A stretch of 64,000 nt of DNA from IMG/VR virus record IMGVR_UViG_3300028072_000006, positions 7,416 through 71,415 of that record. One strand, given 5' to 3'. Positions within the stretch are counted from its first letter, which is position 1; the number at the start of each line of letters is the position of its first letter. Origin of the DNA: a virus (taxonomy: Duplodnaviria; Caudoviricetes). Below the pieces are notes generated by a model that saw only the letters and a list, made by a program, of their open reading frames with translations, ran no database searches and was not told the DNA's origin. Positions 1 to 43,200 of the stretch are shown here, piece by piece. Both the position numbers and the translations under genes were made by a program.

Positions 1-14
1 CGTGTCATCCTCAA

Positions 15-73
15 GGTCGAAACGAGAGCTTTTACTGCTCTCGTCCACGGGTACAACCCGTGCTGATGAGACT
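15..73 (+). ncRNA. Type II hammerhead ribozyme HH1 (predicted cleavage after C45)
   Basis: GGTC(15-18) GAAA(19-22), stem III CGAGAGC/GCTCTCG, TC(44-45), stem I CACGGG/CCCGTG, CTGATGA(63-69), GACT(70-73) closing stem II. Confidence 0.92.
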
Positions 74-85
74 AGGAGAGAAAAA

Positions 86-397
86 TTGACGAAACCCAAT
101 CGCGGAAGTTGAAGTCAAGGAAGTGGTCAAAAGTTTAACTCCGGCAAACCGGGATGCGGCTGCGGCTGCCGCGGAAACTACCGGGTCAACCCGGAGCACA
201 TCGCTTTCGCGAACGAACGGCGCGGGTACGAGTACGAAGCCGAAGAGATCAACCTCGCGCAGGTTAAGCGAGTTCTGAACATCCTAAAGTCTCGGGAAGC
301 TGAGGTCAAGGTTACGTTAACGGAAAAAGAAGTAATCTACTTCATCGAAGCCGAGCGATACTACTGGGTGTTTGTCAAGGTCGAAACGAGAGCGTAA
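86..397 (+). pseudogene. Small early protein with SGKPGCGCGCRGNY motif; 5' part disrupted (in-frame TGA at 110-112)
   Basis: AGGAGAG RBS, then TTG at 86. The same frame is open from 113 to TAA 395-397 and reads as protein (FNSGKPGCGCGCRGNYRVNPEH...YWVFVKVETRA). Not in the ORF track. Confidence 0.6.
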
Positions 398-434
398 GCT
401 CTCGTCCACGGGTTACACCCGTGCTGATGAGACC
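379..434 (+). ncRNA. Type II hammerhead ribozyme HH2 (cleavage after C406)
   Basis: GGTC GAAA, CGAGAGC-GTAA-GCTCTCG, TC, CACGGG..CCCGTG, CTGATGA(424-430), GACC. Confidence 0.95.
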
Positions 435-452
435 CAGTTTGAGGAGAGAAAA

Positions 453-839
453 ATGAACGTCATCGACAAGAACAACCTGAAGATCATCTCCGCCGACATC
501 GAAAAAGCTCTCGAGTCGGTGGCGAAGAAACACGGGGTCAGCTTGACCCGTGGCCGCGGAAAGTACAGCAACGCTTCGACCGGGTCGCTGGTGATCGAGA
601 TCGCGACGATCGGTGTGGACGGAACGGTCGAGAGCCGGGAACGCAGCGACTTCAAGCGGCTGCACGACTTGTACGGTCTGTCGCTCGACGCTCTCGACGC
701 AGAGTTTACCGCGAACGGCTCGACATACCGCATCATCGGCTTGGACTTGGGACGGCGCAAGCGACCGATTCTCTGCGAGGCGAACGGGCACCAGTACCTG
801 TTCCCGTCTGAGCAGGTCAAGCATCTTCTGAACCGCTAG
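453..839 (+). CDS. Hypothetical early protein (128 aa)
   Basis: GAGGAG RBS at 441-446 before ATG 453; the ORF-track start at 372 runs through the ribozyme and is unlikely. Confidence 0.8.
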   Translation: MNVIDKNNLKIISADIEKALESVAKKHGVSLTRGRGKYSNASTGSLVIEIATIGVDGTVESRERSDFKRLHDLYGLSLDALDAEFTANGSTYRIIGLDLGRRKRPILCEANGHQYLFPSEQVKHLLNR

Positions 840-890
840 GTCGAAACTCCCGCAAGGGAGTCTGCCCGTGATACGGGCACTGATGAGACC
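839..890 (+). ncRNA. Type II hammerhead ribozyme HH3 (cleavage after C862)
   Basis: GGTC GAAA, CTCCC-GCAA-GGGAG, TC, TGCCCGT/ACGGGCA, CTGATGA(880-886), GACC. Confidence 0.95.
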
Positions 891-903
891 GAGGAGAGAA
901 CAG

Positions 904-1386
904 ATGAACGACAACCGAATCAAAAAAGCCGTCGAGCAAGCGAGCACCGCGTTCTGGGCACAGATCGTGAAAAACTTTCCCGAGGCGGTGTACGGCGACC
1001 TGGACCCTGAGGTTACCGTGCGGCTGCGCCGCGAGCAGGAAGCCGCCGTCAAGCGTTGGGTGCAGCTCAACATCCCCGTGTACTACCACGAAGTGGCCGA
1101 CAAGCTGGCGGCGAAGGGGTTTGACGCGGAACTCGAAGTCACGGGCGGCGGAATCACCTGCGTCATGGTCCGCATCGGCCGCTTCCAGTTCTGGTGGGGA
1201 ACGGCGAACGAGAACTGGGGAGCAGATGTTTGGGTGGACGGCGACTTCTGGGACGGACACTCGCTCGAGATCGCCAACTGCGCGTCGGACAGCTCCGACT
1301 ACTACAAGGTGGCTGAGCTGATCGCCCGGCACTCGCTGGTGTTCGAGAAGCAGCACCGGAAAGACCAGGTCGAAACGGGGTCTTAG
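904..1386 (+). CDS. Hypothetical early protein (160 aa)
   Basis: GAGGAG RBS at 891-896, ATG 904; stop lies in the HH4 stem III loop. Confidence 0.8.
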   Translation: MNDNRIKKAVEQASTAFWAQIVKNFPEAVYGDLDPEVTVRLRREQEAAVKRWVQLNIPVYYHEVADKLAAKGFDAELEVTGGGITCVMVRIGRFQFWWGTANENWGADVWVDGDFWDGHSLEIANCASDSSDYYKVAELIARHSLVFEKQHRKDQVETGS

Positions 1387-1423
1387 CACCCCGTCTGCCC
1401 GTGACACGGGCACTGATGAGACC
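1368..1423 (+). ncRNA. Type II hammerhead ribozyme HH4 (cleavage after C1395)
   Basis: GGTC GAAA, CGGGGT/ACCCCG, TC, TGCCCGT/ACGGGCA, CTGATGA(1413-1419), GACC. Confidence 0.95.
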
Positions 1424-1437
1424 ACAAGGAGAGAACA

Positions 1438-1704
1438 ATGTTACAGCAGCAGCAATACCTCGCGTCATTCCAGAAGCAGTACCTCACCCGCTGCTCCAAC
1501 TGCGGCGGAAAAACTTCCAAGAAGTACGCCAAGGAGCACGCCGGCCAGTGCAAGGTCTGCGTCACCGGGGAGTCCGGGGCGAACCTGTACAAGTGCCCGG
1601 ACTGCGGCGAACGCCGGCTGACCCTGTACCAGAAGCGCAACGGGTACCACTGCGACACCTGCACCCGCAACGTCGAGCAGACGGGCGGGGTCTACGGTTG
1701 GTAA
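1438..1704 (+). CDS. Small Cys-rich (four CxxC) zinc-finger-like protein
   Basis: AGGAGAG RBS; CSNC, CKVC, CPDC, CDTC. Confidence 0.75.
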   Translation: MLQQQQYLASFQKQYLTRCSNCGGKTSKKYAKEHAGQCKVCVTGESGANLYKCPDCGERRLTLYQKRNGYHCDTCTRNVEQTGGVYGW

Positions 1705-1756
1705 GGTCGAAACGGTCTTCGGACCGTCTGCCCGTGACACGGGCACTGATGAGACC
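1705..1756 (+). ncRNA. Type II hammerhead ribozyme HH5 (cleavage after C1728)
   Basis: GGTC GAAA, CGGTC-TTCG-GACCG (UUCG tetraloop), TC, TGCCCGT/ACGGGCA, CTGATGA(1746-1752), GACC. Confidence 0.95.
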
Positions 1757-1776
1757 CACACAAGGAGAGAAAACTT

Positions 1777-2037
1777 ATGACTGGAGAATGCCCCGCCTGC
1801 CGAGCGGCTGGAAGCATCGGCATCGTCTGCGCACGTTGCAAGAAAGCGACGATCATGCCCGTCAACCACACGCTGTCGCACCAAGTCTGGGCGTCGCAGG
1901 ACCTGAAGATCAACGGCGTCGGCTTCAGCACCCCCGTGCTGCTCGCCGCGTTTCTGATGCGGATCGACGCGGACACCTGGGCGGATGAAGTTTCCCGGCT
2001 GCACTCGGAGTTCAAGGTGGAGGTACGAACGCTGTGA
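1777..2037 (+). CDS. Hypothetical protein with two CxxC motifs
   Basis: AGGAGAG RBS; CPAC and CARC. Confidence 0.7.
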   Translation: MTGECPACRAAGSIGIVCARCKKATIMPVNHTLSHQVWASQDLKINGVGFSTPVLLAAFLMRIDADTWADEVSRLHSEFKVEVRTL

Positions 2038-2246
2038 AAAACTTGCCAAGAGGTTATCGAATCGCGCACGACGATGACGGCGGATGGTCACTAATTGATC
2101 GCAACAAGAATGCCATCGCGTTTCACATGTACCCTTCAAGTCGTCGCAAAGCAGCCGCTACCTTAGTTCAAGCTTGTAAAAAGTTAAAGCGACTTGCTTC
2201 TAGACACAAGAAGATAACTATGAAGCTGTGGAATGAATCACGATAA
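2034..2246 (+). CDS. Hypothetical basic protein
   Basis: GTGA overlap with the previous gene; no ribozyme between the two. Confidence 0.55.
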   Translation: MKNLPRGYRIAHDDDGGWSLIDRNKNAIAFHMYPSSRRKAAATLVQACKKLKRLASRHKKITMKLWNESR

Positions 2247-2248
2247 AA

Positions 2249-2300
2249 GGCCGAAACGCCCGCAAGGGCGTCCACGGGTATCGCCCGTGCTGACGAGGCC
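2249..2300 (+). ncRNA. Type II hammerhead ribozyme HH6 (cleavage after C2272), CUGACGA variant
   Basis: GGCC GAAA, CGCCC-GCAA-GGGCG, TC, CACGGG/CCCGTG, CTGACGA(2290-2296), GGCC; compensatory stem II change. Confidence 0.95.
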
Positions 2301-2327
2301 CGTCAAGAAATTTCTAAGGAGAGAACC

Positions 2328-3080
2328 ATGCCAGACAACAAAAGTATCTCGGCCCTTCTTTCGAGCAGCAAGAGCGTGGAGGTCAACCGCGAGCAGCTGG
2401 GTAAGATCAAGTGCCCGAAGCCGACGGAGTCGCACAAGCCCGTGCCGCACCTCGAGCTGGTCGAGACTTTGGAGGACCGGCTGAAGACGGTCATGGGCGC
2501 GAAGATCATCAAGGAGCAGTTCGCCGTCCGCCGCGAAGGTTCGACGCTGTTCGGCGTGATCACGCTGAAGTACCAAGACACAGAGGACGGTGCAGCGGCC
2601 ATCGGGCTGCGCACCTCGAACGACCGCTCGATGAGCCTGCAGTTCGTCGCCGGTCTCAACGTCTTCGTCTGCGACAACATGTGCTTGCGCGGCGACATGA
2701 TCATGCTCAAGCGCATGCACACTCGGAAGCTCAACCTCGTCGAGGAGATCGACCTCGGGCTGAGCCGCTTCAAGGACCACTACAAGCTGCTGACCGACGA
2801 GGTCGCCAAGCTGCACAAGATCAAGCTGACGACCCCGGAGGCAAAGTCGATGATCCACGACGCCTTTGTCGACCAGCAGATCATGCCCCTGCGCTATCTC
2901 GCGGAGGTCAGCCGGGAATACTTCAAGCCGCGTCACGCGGAGTTCGCTCCGCGAACCGCGTGGAGCCTCCACAACGCGTTCACCGAGGTCGCCAAGCAGA
3001 TGCCCATGACCCCGCGCATGCACGCCACCACCGAGCTCGGCCGGTTCCTAGGCATGAGCCAAGAGAAGGAGGCCGCATAG
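2328..3080 (+). CDS. DUF932-like phage/plasmid protein
   Basis: Recognised pattern HKPVPH...IGLRTSND.S...FVCDN...RMHT; AGGAGAG RBS. Confidence 0.65.
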   Translation: MPDNKSISALLSSSKSVEVNREQLGKIKCPKPTESHKPVPHLELVETLEDRLKTVMGAKIIKEQFAVRREGSTLFGVITLKYQDTEDGAAAIGLRTSNDRSMSLQFVAGLNVFVCDNMCLRGDMIMLKRMHTRKLNLVEEIDLGLSRFKDHYKLLTDEVAKLHKIKLTTPEAKSMIHDAFVDQQIMPLRYLAEVSREYFKPRHAEFAPRTAWSLHNAFTEVAKQMPMTPRMHATTELGRFLGMSQEKEAA

Positions 3081-3131
3081 GTCGAAACGCCCGCAAGGGC
3101 GTCCACCCGTCAAGCGGGTGCTGATGAGACT
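3080..3131 (+). ncRNA. Type II hammerhead ribozyme HH7 (cleavage after C3103)
   Basis: GGTC GAAA, CGCCC-GCAA-GGGCG, TC, stem I CACCCG/CGGGTG (covaries with other copies), CTGATGA(3121-3127), GACT. Confidence 0.95.
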
Positions 3132-3145
3132 AAAGGAGAGCGGAG

Positions 3146-3364
3146 ATGAAACTTTCAAAAGTTGTTTTGTACTTTACCAACAAGCAGCAGAACATCGTCA
3201 TCAACCACGTGAATCAAATTATTCCGTTGGAGGCGACGATCCTGGTTCGAACTCCGGAAACGGACTACAACGTCGAGCGCCGTAACCTGCTGTACTACAC
3301 CGAGACTTGGGTCGACGAGCTGTCAACCAACGACCGAAAAGTATTGCGCCACGCCGGAGAGTAA
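3146..3364 (+). CDS. Hypothetical early protein
   Basis: AGGAGAG RBS; lies between HH7 and HH8. Confidence 0.7.
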   Translation: MKLSKVVLYFTNKQQNIVINHVNQIIPLEATILVRTPETDYNVERRNLLYYTETWVDELSTNDRKVLRHAGE

Positions 3365-3365
3365 A

Positions 3366-3415
3366 GGTCGAAACCCCGCAAGGGGTCCACGGGTAACACC
3401 CGTGCTGATGAGACC
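3366..3415 (+). ncRNA. Type II hammerhead ribozyme HH8 (cleavage after C3387)
   Basis: GGTC GAAA, CCCC-GCAA-GGGG, TC, CACGGGT/ACCCGTG, CTGATGA(3405-3411), GACC. Confidence 0.95.
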
Positions 3416-3430
3416 AAAAGGAGAGCAGAG

Positions 3431-3874
3431 ATGAATAACCAAGAACGAACCGCGAGTATCGTTTCCCAGGCGATCGGCGACGAGCAGGCCACGGGTCGCC
3501 AGACGGGAGTGATCCTGCAAGGTTCAAATTCCATCGTCTACCTTGAAGTTACCGGCAAGGGTTTGGCCCGCCCGTTTCGAATCCGCTACGGGCTGAGCGG
3601 CATCCTTCCCGCCTACGTCGTCTTTGAAGTTTTTGACGAGCAGTTTTCCGAGTTTCGCCCGACGCTGGTTCACTGGACGAAAGCTCTGCACTACCTTCGC
3701 GAAACGAACGCCCGCCACAGCGTTAAGCGCGTCTTGTGGGGAGACGACTTTCGGAACGGGTACACCTGTGCCAAGTGGGACAGGCTGACCTACGACGACC
3801 GCTTTCGAATCACCAACATCTACGGGGATCCGTTCATCGAGGAGCTGCCAGTTCAGGTCGAAACGGAGGCGTGA
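3431..3874 (+). CDS. Hypothetical early protein
   Basis: AGGAGAG RBS; stop TGA in the HH9 GTGA tetraloop. Confidence 0.75.
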   Translation: MNNQERTASIVSQAIGDEQATGRQTGVILQGSNSIVYLEVTGKGLARPFRIRYGLSGILPAYVVFEVFDEQFSEFRPTLVHWTKALHYLRETNARHSVKRVLWGDDFRNGYTCAKWDRLTYDDRFRITNIYGDPFIEELPVQVETEA

Positions 3875-3912
3875 GCCTTCGTCCACGGGTAACACCCGTG
3901 CTGATGAGACCT
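3855..3912 (+). ncRNA. Type II hammerhead ribozyme HH9 (cleavage after C3883)
   Basis: AGGTC GAAA, CGGAGGC-GTGA-GCCTTCG, TC, CACGGGT/ACCCGTG, CTGATGA(3901-3907), GACCT. Confidence 0.95.
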
Positions 3913-3931
3913 AAGTTAAAGGAGAGAACTT

Positions 3932-4237
3932 ATGCCGAAAACAAGCAGCCCGTTCGAAGAGGCGGTGGAGCGGTCGGAGATCATCGCCGACGCGCTCGTC
4001 CTTCGCCTCAACGCGTACCACCGCTGTGACTTTCTGGTCACGGCGATCCAGCTGCAGTCCCTACAGACCGGCGTCTTGATGATGCTGACCTCAGGGGTGA
4101 AGCTGAGCACTCCCGAGGTTGAGATCCTCGCCACCGACGAGGGGCGAGCCTTCCGGCTGTGCTCGGGAATACCCGGCTACCGTTTGGTCGAGGTGACGCT
4201 GCGCTCGATCCGCACGGGGAAGGCGGTGACGCGATGA
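3932..4237 (+). CDS. Hypothetical protein
   Basis: AGGAGAG RBS; ATGA overlap with the next gene. Confidence 0.7.
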   Translation: MPKTSSPFEEAVERSEIIADALVLRLNAYHRCDFLVTAIQLQSLQTGVLMMLTSGVKLSTPEVEILATDEGRAFRLCSGIPGYRLVEVTLRSIRTGKAVTR

Positions 4238-5001
4238 CCGACAAGATCATCGACAAGATCCGCAAGCTCAACACGCAGGCGGAGTCCGCCAGGGCGATCG
4301 GCTCGGAGGCAGAGGCTCAAGCCTTCGCCAGCAAGGTGCAGGAGATGCTGTTCCAGCACAACTTGTCTCTGACCGAAGTTTACACCAAGAGCGCGACGAA
4401 GGATGAGGAGGAAGCCGTCCGCCAAGTCTTCCGGCCGTCTGAGCACGGGCTGAAGGACAAGCGCACCCGCGTCAAGTGGACCGAGGACCTCGCCTACACC
4501 GTGGGACTCGCCAACTTCTGCGAGGTGCTCTTTCACACTGGCTCCAACTTCATCAGCTTCATCGGCTTCCAGCACAACGTGGAGGTGGCCGCGTACGTCT
4601 ACGAAGTTTTGCTGCGGTCGGCCGACCGTCTCGCCGACGCGGCGTACGGCGAGCGGTGGCGCGAGTGCGAGCGGATGGGCAGCGTCGAGTTGTGCCGGGG
4701 CTTCCGGGCGAGCTTCATGGCCGGCTTCGTGAGCCGGCTGTTCGTCCGCATCCGGGAGCGGCAGAAGCAGCAAGCCGCCTCGTCCTCGCTCGCCATCGTC
4801 GTCGTCGACCGCAGTCAGCAGGCGATCGACAAGTGGAAGCAGAACAGCGGGGTCAAGATCAAGACGGCCGAGTCGCTGAAGAACAAGATCACCAACGCCG
4901 CAGGCTACAAGCGCGGCATCCAGGCGGCGGACTCCGTCAACCTGGACCCGAAGGGTCTCAAGGACGGACCCCCGGCGAAGGTCGCGGGTGAGCTCTCGTG
5001 A
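4234..5001 (+). CDS. DUF2786-domain protein
   Basis: N-terminal IIDKIRKL...EAEAQAFASKVQEML pattern typical of DUF2786; ATG 4234 coupled to the previous stop. Confidence 0.65.
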   Translation: MTDKIIDKIRKLNTQAESARAIGSEAEAQAFASKVQEMLFQHNLSLTEVYTKSATKDEEEAVRQVFRPSEHGLKDKRTRVKWTEDLAYTVGLANFCEVLFHTGSNFISFIGFQHNVEVAAYVYEVLLRSADRLADAAYGERWRECERMGSVELCRGFRASFMAGFVSRLFVRIRERQKQQAASSSLAIVVVDRSQQAIDKWKQNSGVKIKTAESLKNKITNAAGYKRGIQAADSVNLDPKGLKDGPPAKVAGELS

Positions 5002-5115
5002 GCGGCCTGCTGATCTTCGCCGTGGTCAACATTGTCAACATCATCGCGCTCATCTTCGTGCTGCGGAGCCAAAAGGCTCCGCGGTAGAAGAACTTCAGCC
5101 GCGAGAAAATAGTTG

Positions 5116-5144
5116 TGTACAAAAAACTTCTCGCGAGGTATACT
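5116..5144 (+). promoter_or_regulatory. Sigma70-like promoter
   Basis: TGTACA-N17-TATACT; shares the TTGT(T/G)TACA upstream motif with three other sites. Confidence 0.65.
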
Positions 5145-5194
5145 TAAGAAGTTTTTGGTTCCCAGCGGTAAAATTCAACAGAGGAGAGACTCAC

Positions 5195-5845
5195 TTGCCA
5201 GAAGAAAACGCCGTACGATTCGCCGATGGAAAAGTCCACGTGTTGGACTTCAGCTTTGACATGCCGCTCGTTCAGTTCGGGTGCAACCGCCTCGCGGAGC
5301 AGATGACTGAGAAGCGGCTGACCCTCACCAACTACCGAAAGATTGCTCAGGCGCTTGGGCTCGAACTTCACGAGGCGCTTGAGATTGACTTTCTCCGCAT
5401 CTCGGTCGCCTCCGTCATGCAGCACGCGTGGTACCAGCAGATGGGCGGGGCGACCGACAAGGTGCAGAGAAACTACGAAGCACAGCTGCAAAGGCACGCC
5501 AAGCACGTAGACGACCTCAGAAAAGGAAAGGTAAAAGCCATGCCGAAGAAAGCCGCATCACCCAAGAAGACCAAGGAGCCGGACAAGCCGTTGCTGTACA
5601 AGCTGCTGTCGAGCAAGATCGGCGAGACCTTGAAGAAGAAGGTCGACAACGCCGAGACCGGGAACCACGACGCCGTTATCGTGCAGGTGTTGTCAGGGTA
5701 CGACACTCCGAAGGACCTGGACACGATCGCCGAGAAGGTCAAAGCCACAGGGCGCTACAAGACGAACGACAAGCTGCCCGCTTCGGTTCGCTGGCACTTG
5801 AATAAGCTGGAGAAGGACGGCGTCGTCGCCGCCAAGGAAGCTTAG
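5195..5845 (+). CDS. Hypothetical protein with probable C-terminal winged-helix DNA-binding domain
   Basis: GAGGAG RBS then TTG 5195; C-terminal DLDTIAEKV...SVRWHLNKLEKDGVV is wHTH-like. Confidence 0.55.
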   Translation: MPEENAVRFADGKVHVLDFSFDMPLVQFGCNRLAEQMTEKRLTLTNYRKIAQALGLELHEALEIDFLRISVASVMQHAWYQQMGGATDKVQRNYEAQLQRHAKHVDDLRKGKVKAMPKKAASPKKTKEPDKPLLYKLLSSKIGETLKKKVDNAETGNHDAVIVQVLSGYDTPKDLDTIAEKVKATGRYKTNDKLPASVRWHLNKLEKDGVVAAKEA

Positions 5846-6465: not shown

Positions 6466-6485
6466 GCGCGAGGCCGCGCATTTTT
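6466..6485 (+). terminator. Possible intrinsic terminator
   Basis: GCGCG-AGGC-CGCGC followed by ATTTTT; short stem. Confidence 0.35.
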
Positions 6486-6500
6486 AACTGAGGAAAACCG

Positions 6501-7667
6501 TTGAGCTACGACAACATCCTGCTGATCAACTCCTACGCCGGCTCGCTGATGATCGCCGCGAAGAAGGAGAAGATGAACGTGCTCGCGTCCTTGGAGGACA
6601 AGGGCTACGGCATCGGCTCGCAGAAGTTGAACTACCCGAAGGAGAACTACATCGACGCCGCGCCGTGGCCGCACCCCGGCCGCGACCTGTCCAACGTCGT
6701 CACGCTCGCGCACCCCCCGTGTGCTTGCTTCTCCGTTCAGGGCGCGCAGTCTAAGAATCCAAAGACACGGGGGCTGGGCTCCGATCACTTCAAGAGCTCG
6801 CGACTCGCCATCGAGTTTGCGCTGCAGCACCGCACCGCGGCGCTCGCCGTCGAGTCCGTAATGGGCACGCTGGAGGGGGCGCGGGTGTACCACGACCGGG
6901 TCGCCAAGAAGTACGGCTATCGCCTGTACCGCGTGTTGCAGAACGCCATCACCTTCGGCGTGCCGCAGTGGCGCCAGCGCTTCTGGCTGATCATGATCCG
7001 CGAGGACCTCGCGAGGCCGAAGCTGTGGCTGCAGCACTCGTACAAGCTCAGGTCGATCGGCGAGAGCTTGCAGGGCGTCAAGCCGGGAGAAGAAAATTGG
7101 TACGTCAGGCGCGAGTTCGACAAGATCACGAAGCGCGTGCGCGACCACGGGGTCACGAAGCTGCAGCTCGAGAAGATCTTGGACGGCGACTTCGGGTATG
7201 GGAACCTGCCCATGCTCGTGGCTCGCGCTCGCGGGCTCGAGCACAAGCACGGCAAGGTCTACGACGTTTGCCGGAAGTTCGGCATCACGACCTTCTCGAG
7301 CTCGTGGCCGCTGATCCTGCACCCCGACGGCTTCACCCCCGCGGTCATGTGCACGAGCCATTTCTGGTACCAGGGCCGTCCGCTGACGATGCCTGAGTAC
7401 AACGTCGTCGCCGGCTTCCCCGCGTCCTACCAGTTCCACACGCCGAAGTTCCAGCAGTGCTTGCTATCGCGCGGCGTCGCGCCGCCTGTGGCCCGCTGGG
7501 TGCTGCAGCAGGTGCGCCACAACCTGAACGGCTGGCAGCCGAAGGGCACGGTGGGAGCCGACCACACCGCGGCGCTCGAGTCGGGCGAGGTCGCCGACTT
7601 CAGGATCAAGCGCGGAGAGATCAGACAGCGCCGCTTGTTCTACACCGGAGAAGATGAAGCTGCCTAA
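6501..7667 (+). CDS. DNA (cytosine-5)-methyltransferase, divergent
   Basis: HPPC catalytic motif IV, AVESV (motif VI), FGVPQWRQR (VIII), RPLT..E...GFP (IX), GVAPP (X); motif I is atypical (NSYAGSL). Confidence 0.8.
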   Translation: MSYDNILLINSYAGSLMIAAKKEKMNVLASLEDKGYGIGSQKLNYPKENYIDAAPWPHPGRDLSNVVTLAHPPCACFSVQGAQSKNPKTRGLGSDHFKSSRLAIEFALQHRTAALAVESVMGTLEGARVYHDRVAKKYGYRLYRVLQNAITFGVPQWRQRFWLIMIREDLARPKLWLQHSYKLRSIGESLQGVKPGEENWYVRREFDKITKRVRDHGVTKLQLEKILDGDFGYGNLPMLVARARGLEHKHGKVYDVCRKFGITTFSSSWPLILHPDGFTPAVMCTSHFWYQGRPLTMPEYNVVAGFPASYQFHTPKFQQCLLSRGVAPPVARWVLQQVRHNLNGWQPKGTVGADHTAALESGEVADFRIKRGEIRQRRLFYTGEDEAA

Positions 7668-15684: not shown

Positions 15685-16046
15685 AGCTAACCGCCGATCA
15701 AGTTGCTGACCAGCTGTTGTTCAGGATGGGGCTCGCTCCCCACTTTTGCACTTACAATCCTCCTCGGCGGTGGCGCAAGCTGCTCGTCGCGGGGATTCAG
15801 CAAGCTCTTGACAGTGGGTACAACTTTACCTTTCGCCGCGTTCGAGACATGATCGACGATGAGTACGAGGTTCAGCAGAAAAAATTTAACTCCGTCCCGG
15901 GCTACAAGAATAAGATCGATAAAGCGCTGTGGGAAATTTTTGACAGCCCGACCCACACGAGCCGCACTCCTGCTTACATGGAGCGTCAAAAGCTCAAGAT
16001 GTGGAAGTACGACAAGAAAAAGAAAGTTTGGTCGTTCAATCTATGA
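15681..16046 (+). CDS. Hypothetical protein
   Basis: GAGGAG RBS, TTG start. Confidence 0.6.
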   Translation: MKLTADQVADQLLFRMGLAPHFCTYNPPRRWRKLLVAGIQQALDSGYNFTFRRVRDMIDDEYEVQQKKFNSVPGYKNKIDKALWEIFDSPTHTSRTPAYMERQKLKMWKYDKKKKVWSFNL

Positions 16047-40222: not shown

Positions 40223-43200
40223 TTGAAAAAGAAACTCGCAAGTTGGCTCGCTCCGCTGCTCCTGCTGCTGGGGGTTGCCGTTGTCGGGCAGAACGTTCAG
40301 ACGCAGACGCAGACGATCACCGTCTCGGGCCAGACCATCACGGTGAACAACAACCACGGCGCGCTGAAGGGCAGCTTCGTCTACGCGATCTTCGGGGCGC
40401 CGTCGACGATGTCGTTGATCATCCAGGGCTGCATCGCGAACCCGTTTTCTTGCACCACGCTCGACACGTACACGTCCACCCAGAACACGACGCGGCAGAT
40501 CAACGTTTCGACGCCCTACAGCTACTTCACGGTGCAGGGCTCTTGGACGGGCGGAGTTGCTGCTCCTGGCACTTACGTGACCGTCACCAGCTCGCTGCAG
40601 CTCGGTGGGAGCTCGGGCGGCGGCCTGGGCAACGTCACGGTGATCGGAAACCCTACGGGAACCGGGCAAGTTCCGACGACGACGTCAACGACGACGGCGA
40701 CTTGGCAGACACCGGCGGGTGGGGGAAACGTCAACGGTACGGGCCTGACGGCCAACAACGTGATGGCCGGCAACGGCACGTCGAACATCAAGGACTCGGG
40801 CATCGCCACCAGTTCACTAGCCCTAACCTCGAATCCGCTTTCGCAGTTCGCTGCTACTACCTCATCGCAGCTAGCGTCGATTATCAGCGACGAGACGGGA
40901 TCAGGCGGAGCCGTGTTTGCCACCAGCCCCACGTTGGTTACGCCAAACTTGGGAACTCCGTCGGCCGCGGTCTTGACCAATGCGACGGGGCTGCCGCTGT
41001 CCACGGGCGTGACGGGCACGCTGCCTAGCTCGGCGCTGAGCTTGAGCGACCGCTTGGTGTCGGGAACCTCCGACACGATCTTGGCGGCTGATCGCTCGAA
41101 CCGCGTCGCCTACTCTAACGCCAGCCCGATCGCGGTGACCTTGCCGCAGGCCGGCTCGACGAACTTTACCAATTTCTACACGCGGATCTCGAACCAAGGC
41201 GTCGGCCAGGTGACGGTCACGCCGACGACCTCGACGATCAACGGCGTCGCCTCAGTGCTCTTGAACCAGGGTGAGTTCTGCTTCATCACCGTGGACAGCG
41301 CCGGAACCAACTACGCGGCCGACTGTACTGAGTCGCAGATCACCTGGGGCGCCAACCTGACCCCGACTCGCTCGGCCCACGGCCTGCAGGTCGATGTGAC
41401 GGGACTCGCGCCCGCGCCCGCAGACACCGCAGCGACGCCGCACCTGTTCTTCAACCAGTACACGCAAGTCTCAGGCGTCATCGGCGCGGTGCAGCCGGTG
41501 GAGGCCGACGTTGTTAACCTCTCCACCGATCTCGCCAATCGCTTGACCACCAACACAGTGACGGCGCTGGGTGTGAACCCGAACTCGGTGGCGGCAGGCT
41601 TCATCACCGGCAGCGGCCAGTTCAAGATCACGCTGGCGAGTCCGACCACCGTGTCGTCAGTGTCGAGCTCGACGGTCAGCAACTTGTGCGGCGCCTACCA
41701 GGTGGACGCGACGCCGACCTTCGCCGAGGATTGCTGGCAGTGGCAGGACCTGCTGGGTACGGGCATCAATGACACCTCGACCTTCCGGCTCGTTCACGCG
41801 GGGTCTTCAGGCCGGACCACGGTCTCGATTCCGCAGATGTCGCAAACGGGAACGGGCGGCAACGTCGCCGTCGTCGCCAACGACGTGACGACGGGAACGA
41901 CGATTAACTTGCTGGCGAAAATCACGTCCACGGGCGCGATCAAGGCGACGACGGGTGACAAGACGACGCCAACCTTCATCGTCAGCGGCGTCCCGGGCAC
42001 GACGGGGAACGCGCAGCTGACTGTGGCAGGCATCGCGAAGTGCGTCATGGACGTCACCAACGCGAGCGGCGTGATGGGGCAGGCCGTCTACGCGTCGACG
42101 ACGACGGCGGGACAGTGCTCGACGGGAACTTCTGGGTTGACGACCAACGCGTGGATCATCGGCGTGATGGAGCAAGACTCAACGACGAGCGGGCAGGCCG
42201 CGTTCGTGCTGGTCGGTGCGGGCAGCCGCAACCTCGGTCTGTCGGGCAACGGCACGAAGCTGCAGACGACGAGCTTGGCCTCGACGACGCTGAACGACAT
42301 TACGGTGTTTGACGCGAACGGCAACACCGTTGACTCGGGAACCCCGATAACGGCAACGGCTTGCCTGCAGCTCGAGTCCTCGCTGTGCACCTCGGCGGTT
42401 GATGGTAGCGGCAACCCATCCTTTATCGCGCAAGGCTCGGCGGGCAACAACTTGACGATCACCGGGACAGGCTTGGTGGTCGTGACCGGCGGCCTGTACC
42501 AGGTCGGTACGGGAACCTACACCGACGCAATCACCGGGCTGACCTCCTCCAAGTTTTACTACGTCTACGTCAAGCAGGACACCAGCAACGCGACGCTGGT
42601 CGGAGCGGACTTCGGCGCCACTCAGCTCGCTCCCGTCTACAGTTACATCACGCCGACGGCGTGCACGGGCGCGAGCTCAACCAACCCGCAGTACTGGTTT
42701 GACCTAACGGTCCGGACGTGGAAAAAGTCGACCGCTGCGGCCTGTTCTTTCTCAGCCGCGTCTCCGACGGTCACGTTCCTGGGCGCTGTTTGGGTAACAG
42801 CGACGCCGACGATCTCTGGCGTGGCGCACGAGCCGTTCAACCTCAGCCCGTACAAGCGCTACGAGCTGTTCGGCGACGGGTTCGACGCGCAGAACGGCGG
42901 CACAGACATCACCAAGCAGGAGAAGACGAGCGGCTCGACGAACATCGACCATTGGCACACGTATACTTCTGTCCAGGCGACGGGTGCGACGCTGCAGCCA
43001 ACGAGCATCGCGAACAACGGGACGACCTCGGGCTTGATGATCTTGTACTCGCAGAACCCCGTGTTGATCGTGAACACTTCGAGCGTGTCGGCTTCCTCGC
43101 TGGGGCGTGCGGGCGCCGCGGGGCAAACGGGAGCGGGTTCGGGAGCTTCAGGTGGCGGCTATGCGGGTTCCTCGGGCGGCGGTGGTGGCGGCGGAACGGG

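Follow-up and report, generated by a model that had tools for sequence, protein, structure and literature searches.

Nine type II hammerhead motifs between the first genes of a phage operon point to a self-processing polycistronic RNA

Results and discussion

The locus

The window analysed here is a stretch of 64,000 nucleotides (nt) of viral DNA, corresponding to bases 7416-71415 of the linear 71,415-bp IMG/VR virus record IMGVR_UViG_3300028072_000006, for which CheckV estimates a completeness of 88%. At its left end nine type II hammerhead ribozyme motifs (HH1 to HH9) are found within 3.9 kb, where they bound seven units with a single gene and one unit with two genes. The array occupies the very beginning of a rightward operon that follows the main control region of the genome; it is from this position that we infer the operon to be an early one. 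Pfam scans of the record further identify a large terminase, a portal protein, a tail protein, a family A DNA polymerase (PolA), an SNF2 helicase, a primase-helicase, DNA methylases and enzymes of nucleotide metabolism, nearly all encoded on the + strand, and given this gene set the source is a tailed phage.

All nine elements share one order of parts: the 3' strand of stem II, GAAA, hairpin III, UC, hairpin I, CUGANGA and the 5' strand of stem II. Stems I and III are thus capped and stem II is open in every copy, which is the type II permutation. HH1 (15-73) has a predicted cut after 45, a stem II that ends in a G-U pair (GGUC/GACU) and a 7-nt stem III loop. It is followed by HH2 (379-434, cut after 406, stem III loop GUAA), HH3 (839-890, cut after 862), HH4 (1368-1423, cut after 1395) and HH5 (1705-1756, cut after 1728), the latter with a UUCG loop and a 33-nt stretch that is identical in HH4. 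HH6 (2249-2300, cut after 2272) carries a compensatory change in stem II, HH7 (3080-3131, cut after 3103) has CACCCG/CGGGUG as its stem I, and HH8 (3366-3415, cut after 3387) possesses the shortest stem III (5 bp, GCAA loop). The array is closed by HH9 (3856-3911, cut after 3883), with a GUGA stem III loop. From these predicted cuts, units of 361, 456, 533, 333, 544, 831, 284 and 496 nt are obtained, exactly the lengths given in the original prediction, an earlier reading of the window that was made from the sequence alone.

Detection, catalytic core and folds

A strict type II descriptor (GAAAC, 8-30 nt, GTC, 10-30 nt, CTGANGA) yields nine matches against 0.43 expected from shuffled sequence, at 19-69, 383-430, 843-886, 1372-1419, 1709-1752, 2253-2296, 3084-3127, 3370-3411 and 3860-3907, all on the + strand. 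A covariance model that was built from three of the copies recovers exactly these nine (48-85 bits, E <= 1e-13). In the whole 71,415-bp record no further copy was found with the strict pattern, a looser core scan or the covariance model. Degenerate copies were sought at the ribozyme-free gene boundaries and on the minus strand, where the sole extra match (12.8 bits, 41474-41527) is at chance level. An extension of the array upstream of the window was not borne out either: the loose core scan and the covariance model find nothing beyond HH1 in the preceding 7.4 kb.

The catalytic core (CUGANGA, GAA, the A-U pair and GUC) is complete in all nine copies. Positions C3 to A9 are invariant except for the free N7 (U in eight copies, C in HH6), as are G12 to A14, the pair A15.1-U16.1 and C17. 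The minimum-free-energy fold is the three-way hammerhead junction in each case, at -22 to -27 kcal/mol. In a model-guided alignment of the nine, 99.4% of 160 pair cells hold a standard pair; although the structure guided this alignment, the stems of such short copies can be recognised by eye without ambiguity. Twelve of the 19 stem pairs vary and 10 have changed on both sides, and pairing falls to 31-48% when one partner is slid by one to three columns as a control. Stem II is GGUC/GACC in six copies, differs only by a G-U pair in HH1 and HH7, and has become GGCC/GGCC in HH6. Stem III is mostly closed by a GNRA loop (six copies), with one UUCG and two other loops. The original prediction, which placed nine type II hammerheads here with a full core and a GUC triplet, stems that differ yet keep pairing (including the change in HH6) and mainly GNRA or UUCG loops, is therewith confirmed on each of these counts.

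Fit to the genes

The elements are fitted tightly between the stop codon of one gene and the start of the next. For eight of the nine, the upstream stop lies within 5 nt of stem II, overlaps it or is located in the stem III loop, HH1 being the exception (48 nt upstream). The stops TAG 837-839 (gene 453-839) and TAG 3078-3080 (the DUF932 gene) overlap the first G of stem II of HH3 and HH7, respectively, and three TAA stops (1702-1704, 2244-2246 and 3362-3364) precede stem II by 0-2 nt. Three others are inside the stem III loop: TAA 395-397 in HH2, which closes the open frame 113-397, TAG 1384-1386 of gene 904-1386 in HH4 and TGA 3872-3874 of gene 3431-3874 in HH9. The three open reading frames (ORFs) that enter a ribozyme do so in the same reading frame and end in V-E-T-x-x. 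Since all upstream stops are 5' of the predicted cut, no product would be left without a stop codon. On the downstream side, the start codon follows the end of the ribozyme after 12-27 nt, with a ribosome-binding site (RBS) of the AGGAGAG type in between, the GGAG of which stays mostly unpaired in the folds predicted for the 3' products.

The cargo, all on the + strand, consists of gene 453-839 (with Y4mA_C, taken from precomputed Pfam hits on population contigs), gene 904-1386, gene 1438-1704 (Zn-ribbon-like), genes 1777-2037 and 2034-2246, gene 2328-3080 (DUF932), gene 3146-3364 and gene 3431-3874, and an AGGAGAG-type RBS precedes each cargo gene within 453-3874. Genes 1777-2037 and 2034-2246 form one dicistronic unit, in which they overlap by GTGA without a ribozyme between them. 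Past the array, the genes 3932-4237, 4234-5001 (DUF2786/DUF7168) and 4988-5845, also on the + strand, are joined by start-to-stop overlaps and carry no ribozymes. The claim that there is one hammerhead per gene boundary thus does not hold, as ribozymes are lacking at the boundary 2034-2037 and likewise at those after 3911. An RBS and a start codon soon after each element were also predicted; the spacing found is 12-27 nt (about 13-28 nt in the prediction), and the unit after HH1 has no intact ORF. In this first unit (86-397, + strand) a TTG at 86 stands behind the RBS, but meets an in-frame TGA at 110-112, after which a 94-codon open frame runs to the TAA that ends at 397. The first canonical start in that frame is a GTG close to its 3' end, and from the RBS of the unit no intact ORF can be read. 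Probably unit 1 is a decayed or recoded gene; gene decay, a recoding site and a leader peptide are all conceivable for this region.

Y4mA_C, DUF932 and DUF2786/DUF7168 are families common among the early-entry genes of plasmids, integrative and conjugative elements and prophages. A tblastn search of 13 proteins against 206 viral loci shows cargo to be shared only with two loci, which had originally been fetched by the same DUF2786 protein, and a search for close relatives with that protein returned only two matches at about 30% identity. BLAST of one ribozyme against cultured phages gave chance matches only.

Proposed processing of the transcript

Overall, we consider it probable that the nine elements are functional type II hammerheads of a single rightward early operon, through which the polycistronic RNA would process itself and provide each early gene with a message of its own. 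Self-processing is the best explanation of the array; the same function has been proposed for such clusters, and triple arrays cleave in vitro (PMC3088659). Cleavage in vivo, co-transcription of the array and effects on stability or translation are what we infer from the sequence. The operon would start in the non-coding control region of 550 nt that immediately precedes the window. Each element of 50-59 nt would fold during transcription and cut itself after GUC, giving a leader unit, eight internal units of 284-831 nt and a tail unit with the translationally coupled genes from 3932 onwards. With stems I and III capped, the two halves would be joined after the cut only by the 4-bp stem II, which should permit ready separation. 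The upstream piece would retain its stop codon and have hairpin III and UC at its 3' end, terminated by a 2',3'-cyclic phosphate, whereas the downstream piece would start with the stem I hairpin, without an unpaired 5' base and with a 5'-OH, and have its RBS and start codon 12-27 nt further on.

In bacterial mRNA decay, 5'-terminal stem-loops and 5' ends other than a monophosphate impede 5'-end-dependent attack by RNase E, and a hairpin and a block at the 3' end hinder 3' exonucleases as well as polyadenylation. As the predicted products carry hairpins at both new termini, both ends look protected. The topologies of types I and III would instead leave one product with a single-stranded end; the protected ends of type II products would favour a stabilising and insulating role, as in the original prediction, an effect that would depend on the RNases of the host. 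The likely benefit would consist of hairpin-sealed ends and a uniform initiation context, by which the stability and yield of each gene might be uncoupled from those of its neighbours. A comparison can be made with RiboJ, an engineered hammerhead insulator just upstream of the RBS that provides a defined hairpin 5' end and a context-independent translation start. RiboJ has a different topology and is used singly downstream of a promoter, so the likeness is an analogy of function and not a matter of membership. Stabilisation by the 5'-OH together with RiboJ-like insulation seems plausible as a model.

The same ends can also be read in the opposite sense. Active ribozymes might shorten the life of the early message, by removing the 5' triphosphate and exposing a 5'-OH to an RNase J-type exonuclease or by uncoupling translation, and produce a brief burst of expression. 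Motifs and placement agree with this too, and the array covers only the first, presumably immediate-early, genes. In Bacillus subtilis, moreover, the 5'-OH product left by the glmS ribozyme is broken down by RNase J1. Set against this, the stable hairpins that seal both new ends, with no unpaired 5' base, look like protection. What hints there are about the host are weak and point to Proteobacteria: the nearest relatives of the terminase (41-59% identity) are mostly found in alphaproteobacterial genomes. These organisms rely on RNase E. We therefore regard destabilisation as an unlikely purpose of the array.

It might also be argued that the released units are circularised, either by the reverse hammerhead reaction or by a host ligase of the RtcB type, with the ends of a unit re-forming a hammerhead through the shared stem II, since the 3' half of one ribozyme stands at the 5' end of each unit and the 5' half of the following one at its 3' end. 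The end chemistry is right for RtcB and the ends could pair in seven of the eight units, as stem II is the common GGUC/GACC in six copies and deviates by G-U only in HH1 and HH7. Such circles were raised as a possibility by Perreault et al., who sought spliced or circular products without success (PMC3088659). In our array the compensatory change in HH6 maintains its own pairing but results in an A-C mismatch across the ends of unit 5, and a common stem II is expected anyway from shared descent and the requirement for G10.1-C11.1. Circularisation consequently appears extremely improbable to us.

Structural subclass and cleavage

Several observations weigh against self-processing as set out above. 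At the Rfam gathering threshold (37 bits) none of the nine is reported, the best score being 35.1 (HH3). A helix of at least 4 bp between loop I and the 3' tail is impossible in all nine (longest 1-3 bp); as this pseudoknot is absent throughout, a fast rate of cleavage in the cell is not assured. Translation could compete with folding of the ribozyme: in three units ribosomes on the upstream ORF enter the element and reach its stem III loop, and at five further boundaries they stop at most 5 nt from stem II or overlapping it. A search of the control region for a sigma-70-type promoter consensus found none, and the stabilising effect of a 5'-OH depends on the RNases of the host.

The low Rfam scores can be attributed to a short stem I without the pseudoknot. 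In the Rfam consensus loop I is longer and pairs with the tail that follows stem II on its 3' side, whereas the nine copies have a stem I hairpin of 17 nt. The Infernal check against Hammerhead_II that the original prediction had proposed therefore succeeds in part: at permissive thresholds six of the nine match RF02276 (Hammerhead_II) at 26.3-35.1 bits (E 2e-4 to 0.04), and these six are the top RF02276 hits in the region, yet none attains the gathering score, and the three other copies are not listed by Rfam at E <= 10. What the nine share with RF02276 is the complete core, the capping of stems I and III, a stem II that is open and the conserved A on its 5' side; they differ by scoring below 37 bits, by the 17-nt hairpin and the 4-bp stem II, and by the missing pseudoknot, which in type II is a feature of the majority and not a universal one.

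Of 120 type II motifs sampled without bias from IMG/VR, 33 (about 27% of the viral sample) have a 17-nt stem I hairpin. Among these 33, stem II has 4 bp in 31, an A is found directly 5' of stem II in 30 and U1.7 is present in 31, while the remaining motifs mostly combine hairpins of 21-24 nt with a 3-bp stem II. Viral type II motifs thus appear as two subclasses, the 21-24-nt class with a pseudoknot and the 17-nt class without. It was further observed that stem II is nearly constant within one array and differs between arrays. By these features the nine copies belong to a well-defined, pseudoknot-free subclass.

According to Perreault et al. (2011, PMC3088659), high speed at 0.5 mM Mg2+ depends critically on the pseudoknot, although other contacts may be used by hammerheads that lack it. 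One possibility is that the elements are slow, conditional or inactive, cleave little at cellular Mg2+, and act mainly as intercistronic hairpins or cleave only under certain circumstances, e.g. when upstream translation pauses. No copy can form the loop I/3'-tail helix of at least 4 bp, 9 of 9 score below the gathering threshold, and with stop codons in or against the ribozymes, ribosomes that terminate there have to open stem II and part of stem III; moreover, regulated cleavage has been suggested for slow phage variants (PMC3088659). Conversely, the invariance of the catalytic positions in nine diverged copies indicates selection on catalysis, and the sharp definition of the subclass suggests that a tertiary contact is present but of another kind. 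We thus think it improbable that the hammerheads are slow or idle, and retain self-processing.

The open ends of stem II, with the invariant A, may stand in for loop II as the tertiary contact. A bolder proposal, which we put forward as a long shot, is that the motifs form a distinct subclass (17-nt hairpin with U1.7, 4-bp stem II, the A, no pseudoknot) in which a loop-loop contact is made via the stem II ends and cleavage is gated by translation, the stop codons supplying or adjoining that A. If this were true, it would represent a translation-gated punctuation, and products capped at both ends would explain why phages prefer the type II topology. As the Rfam gathering threshold detects none of the nine, the array also lends itself to the question of whether standard annotations miss such hammerheads.

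Comparison with known arrays

Clustered hammerheads that flank single genes or short gene blocks have been described in prophages, among them triple arrays in Clostridium scindens, Azorhizobium caulinodans and Agrobacterium tumefaciens, the last flanking ardA (Perreault et al. 2011, PMC3088659). The three triple arrays gave the expected cleavage products in vitro and the Agrobacterium array also did so in vivo, and the proposed role is the processing of long phage RNAs into mRNAs of single-gene or operon length (PMC3088659). Like our array, those clusters have several hammerheads on the gene strand between phage genes, with a variable and mostly unknown cargo. They differ in number (three tested per array against nine copies in 3.9 kb), and here all copies are of type II and of one subclass, fit tightly from stop to RBS and are located on an uncultivated free contig and not in a prophage. 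The published arrays cleave, whereas the nine-copy array is known from sequence. In Desulfovibrio vulgaris, three type II hammerheads near hypothetical or phage-like genes cleave in vivo according to cyPhyRNA-seq, by which 5'-OH and 2',3'-cyclic-phosphate ends were captured (PMC8782182); these have the same topology, but occupy three separate genome locations and do not form an array.

Similar arrays were also sought in other phage contigs, as had been proposed. Among the 155 locus-strands with a type II motif on the viral contigs fetched, 43 have at least two, 12 at least four and two have eight. Type II arrays are seen in the IMG/VR contigs L095 and L144 (eight each), L104, L156 and L020 (six) and L026 (five). 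These share with our array the punctuation by stop, ribozyme, RBS and start, an array-specific stem II and varying stems I and III; they stem from different phages (GC content 46-66%) without common cargo, and several are of the pseudoknot subclass. For 242 type II motifs from other viral contigs, a stop triplet is adjacent in 75% and an RBS plus start follows within 45 nt in 82%. The survey thus turned up arrays of 4-8 copies, and together with the published clusters (PMC3088659) this contradicts the view that one-per-gene arrays had not been characterised. Nine copies represent the high end of the sample but are not exceptional: the layout has been known in phages since 2011, and the present locus is a clean, tidy and fairly large new example, which changes nothing known about this kind of system. 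According to a 2019 review (PMC6765202), what hammerheads do in bacteria and phages is still largely elusive. Here a compact array offers nine comparable test cases in one transcript, suited to ask whether early phage genes owe their individual stability and yield to ribozyme punctuation and whether pseudoknot-free type II hammerheads are fast in cells.

Variation among population contigs

The region is present at 99.9% identity or more in at least 19-25 contigs of ENA, JGI and Logan assemblies, with ERZ27256716, JGI 3300028293 and SRR7687003 among the sources, and because these contigs are so similar, they are unsuitable for a test of covariation. Only one substitution falls within the ribozymes: a single contig has G1401A, by which the sixth pair of stem I in HH4 is lost. 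Gene 1438-1704 is frameshifted by an insertion of C after 1628 in several otherwise 99.9%-identical contigs (ERZ27256719, JGI 3300024317), and hence appears dispensable. Indels in the region of unit 1 differ: one contig has single-base insertions after 90 and 116, another after 313.

A single Logan contig (L302, SRR7687003) lacks exactly one 333-nt unit, the one that contains gene 1438-1704. Its positions 1538-1609 correspond to window 1368-1756, with the 5' half of HH4 joined to the 3' flank of HH5 in one intact chimeric hammerhead. The joint reflects either recombination between the ribozyme repeats or an assembly artefact over the shared 33-nt stretch. Taken as a deletion, it might indicate a role at the DNA level, in which the 50-nt repeats serve as homology patches for the gain, loss or exchange of gene cassettes and RNA cleavage is secondary; that arrays of different phages have no cargo genes in common would agree with this. 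Homology patches, however, need no invariant core with covarying stems, the divergence of the stems lowers homology, and recombination is a by-product of any repeat. With the deletion resting on one contig across a 33-nt repeat, where an artefact is possible, we hold a primarily DNA-level role to be very unlikely and keep to processing of the RNA.

Contig ends were considered as a trace of RNA ends, as three Logan contigs start at window 1727 beside the cut of HH5, but this was rejected. HH4 and HH5 share an exact 33-nt repeat that would break assembly at k=31, and at 1420, within the HH4 copy of this repeat, two further contigs end; both sets of ends are attributed to assembly.

Control region and operon limits

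In the 7.4 kb that precede the window, late genes end at contig position 6624, followed by a hairpin with a T-run and about 550 nt of AT-rich non-coding DNA. The latter includes three copies of an operator-like palindrome, TAGTACTAGTACTA, at contig 6758-7102 (315-660 nt upstream of window base 1), the third of which is a near-perfect 29-nt palindrome (contig 7074-7102). Nothing comparable is found in the window, where one match with 2 mismatches (15861-15872) is at chance level (0.61 in shuffles). This region is probably a repressor/promoter control region. It is followed by a 68-codon gene (contig 7175-7381) with the ribosome-binding context AGGAGAGAAAAATG, which recurs further on, and HH1 begins 48 nt past the stop codon of this gene.

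On the gene strand no sigma-70-like promoter was found in window 1-4000, and on the + strand the first terminator-like site does not occur before 4507. Both are consistent with one transcript across the array, bearing in mind that sigma-70 may not be the promoter type of the host. RNA ligase and polynucleotide kinase were not found in Pfam scans of the ORFs tested. Further downstream, a GC-rich hairpin with a T-run (GCGCGAGGCCGCGC ATTTTT) at window 6466-6489 represents a candidate terminator of the ribozyme operon, and it just precedes a cytosine methylase gene at 6501.

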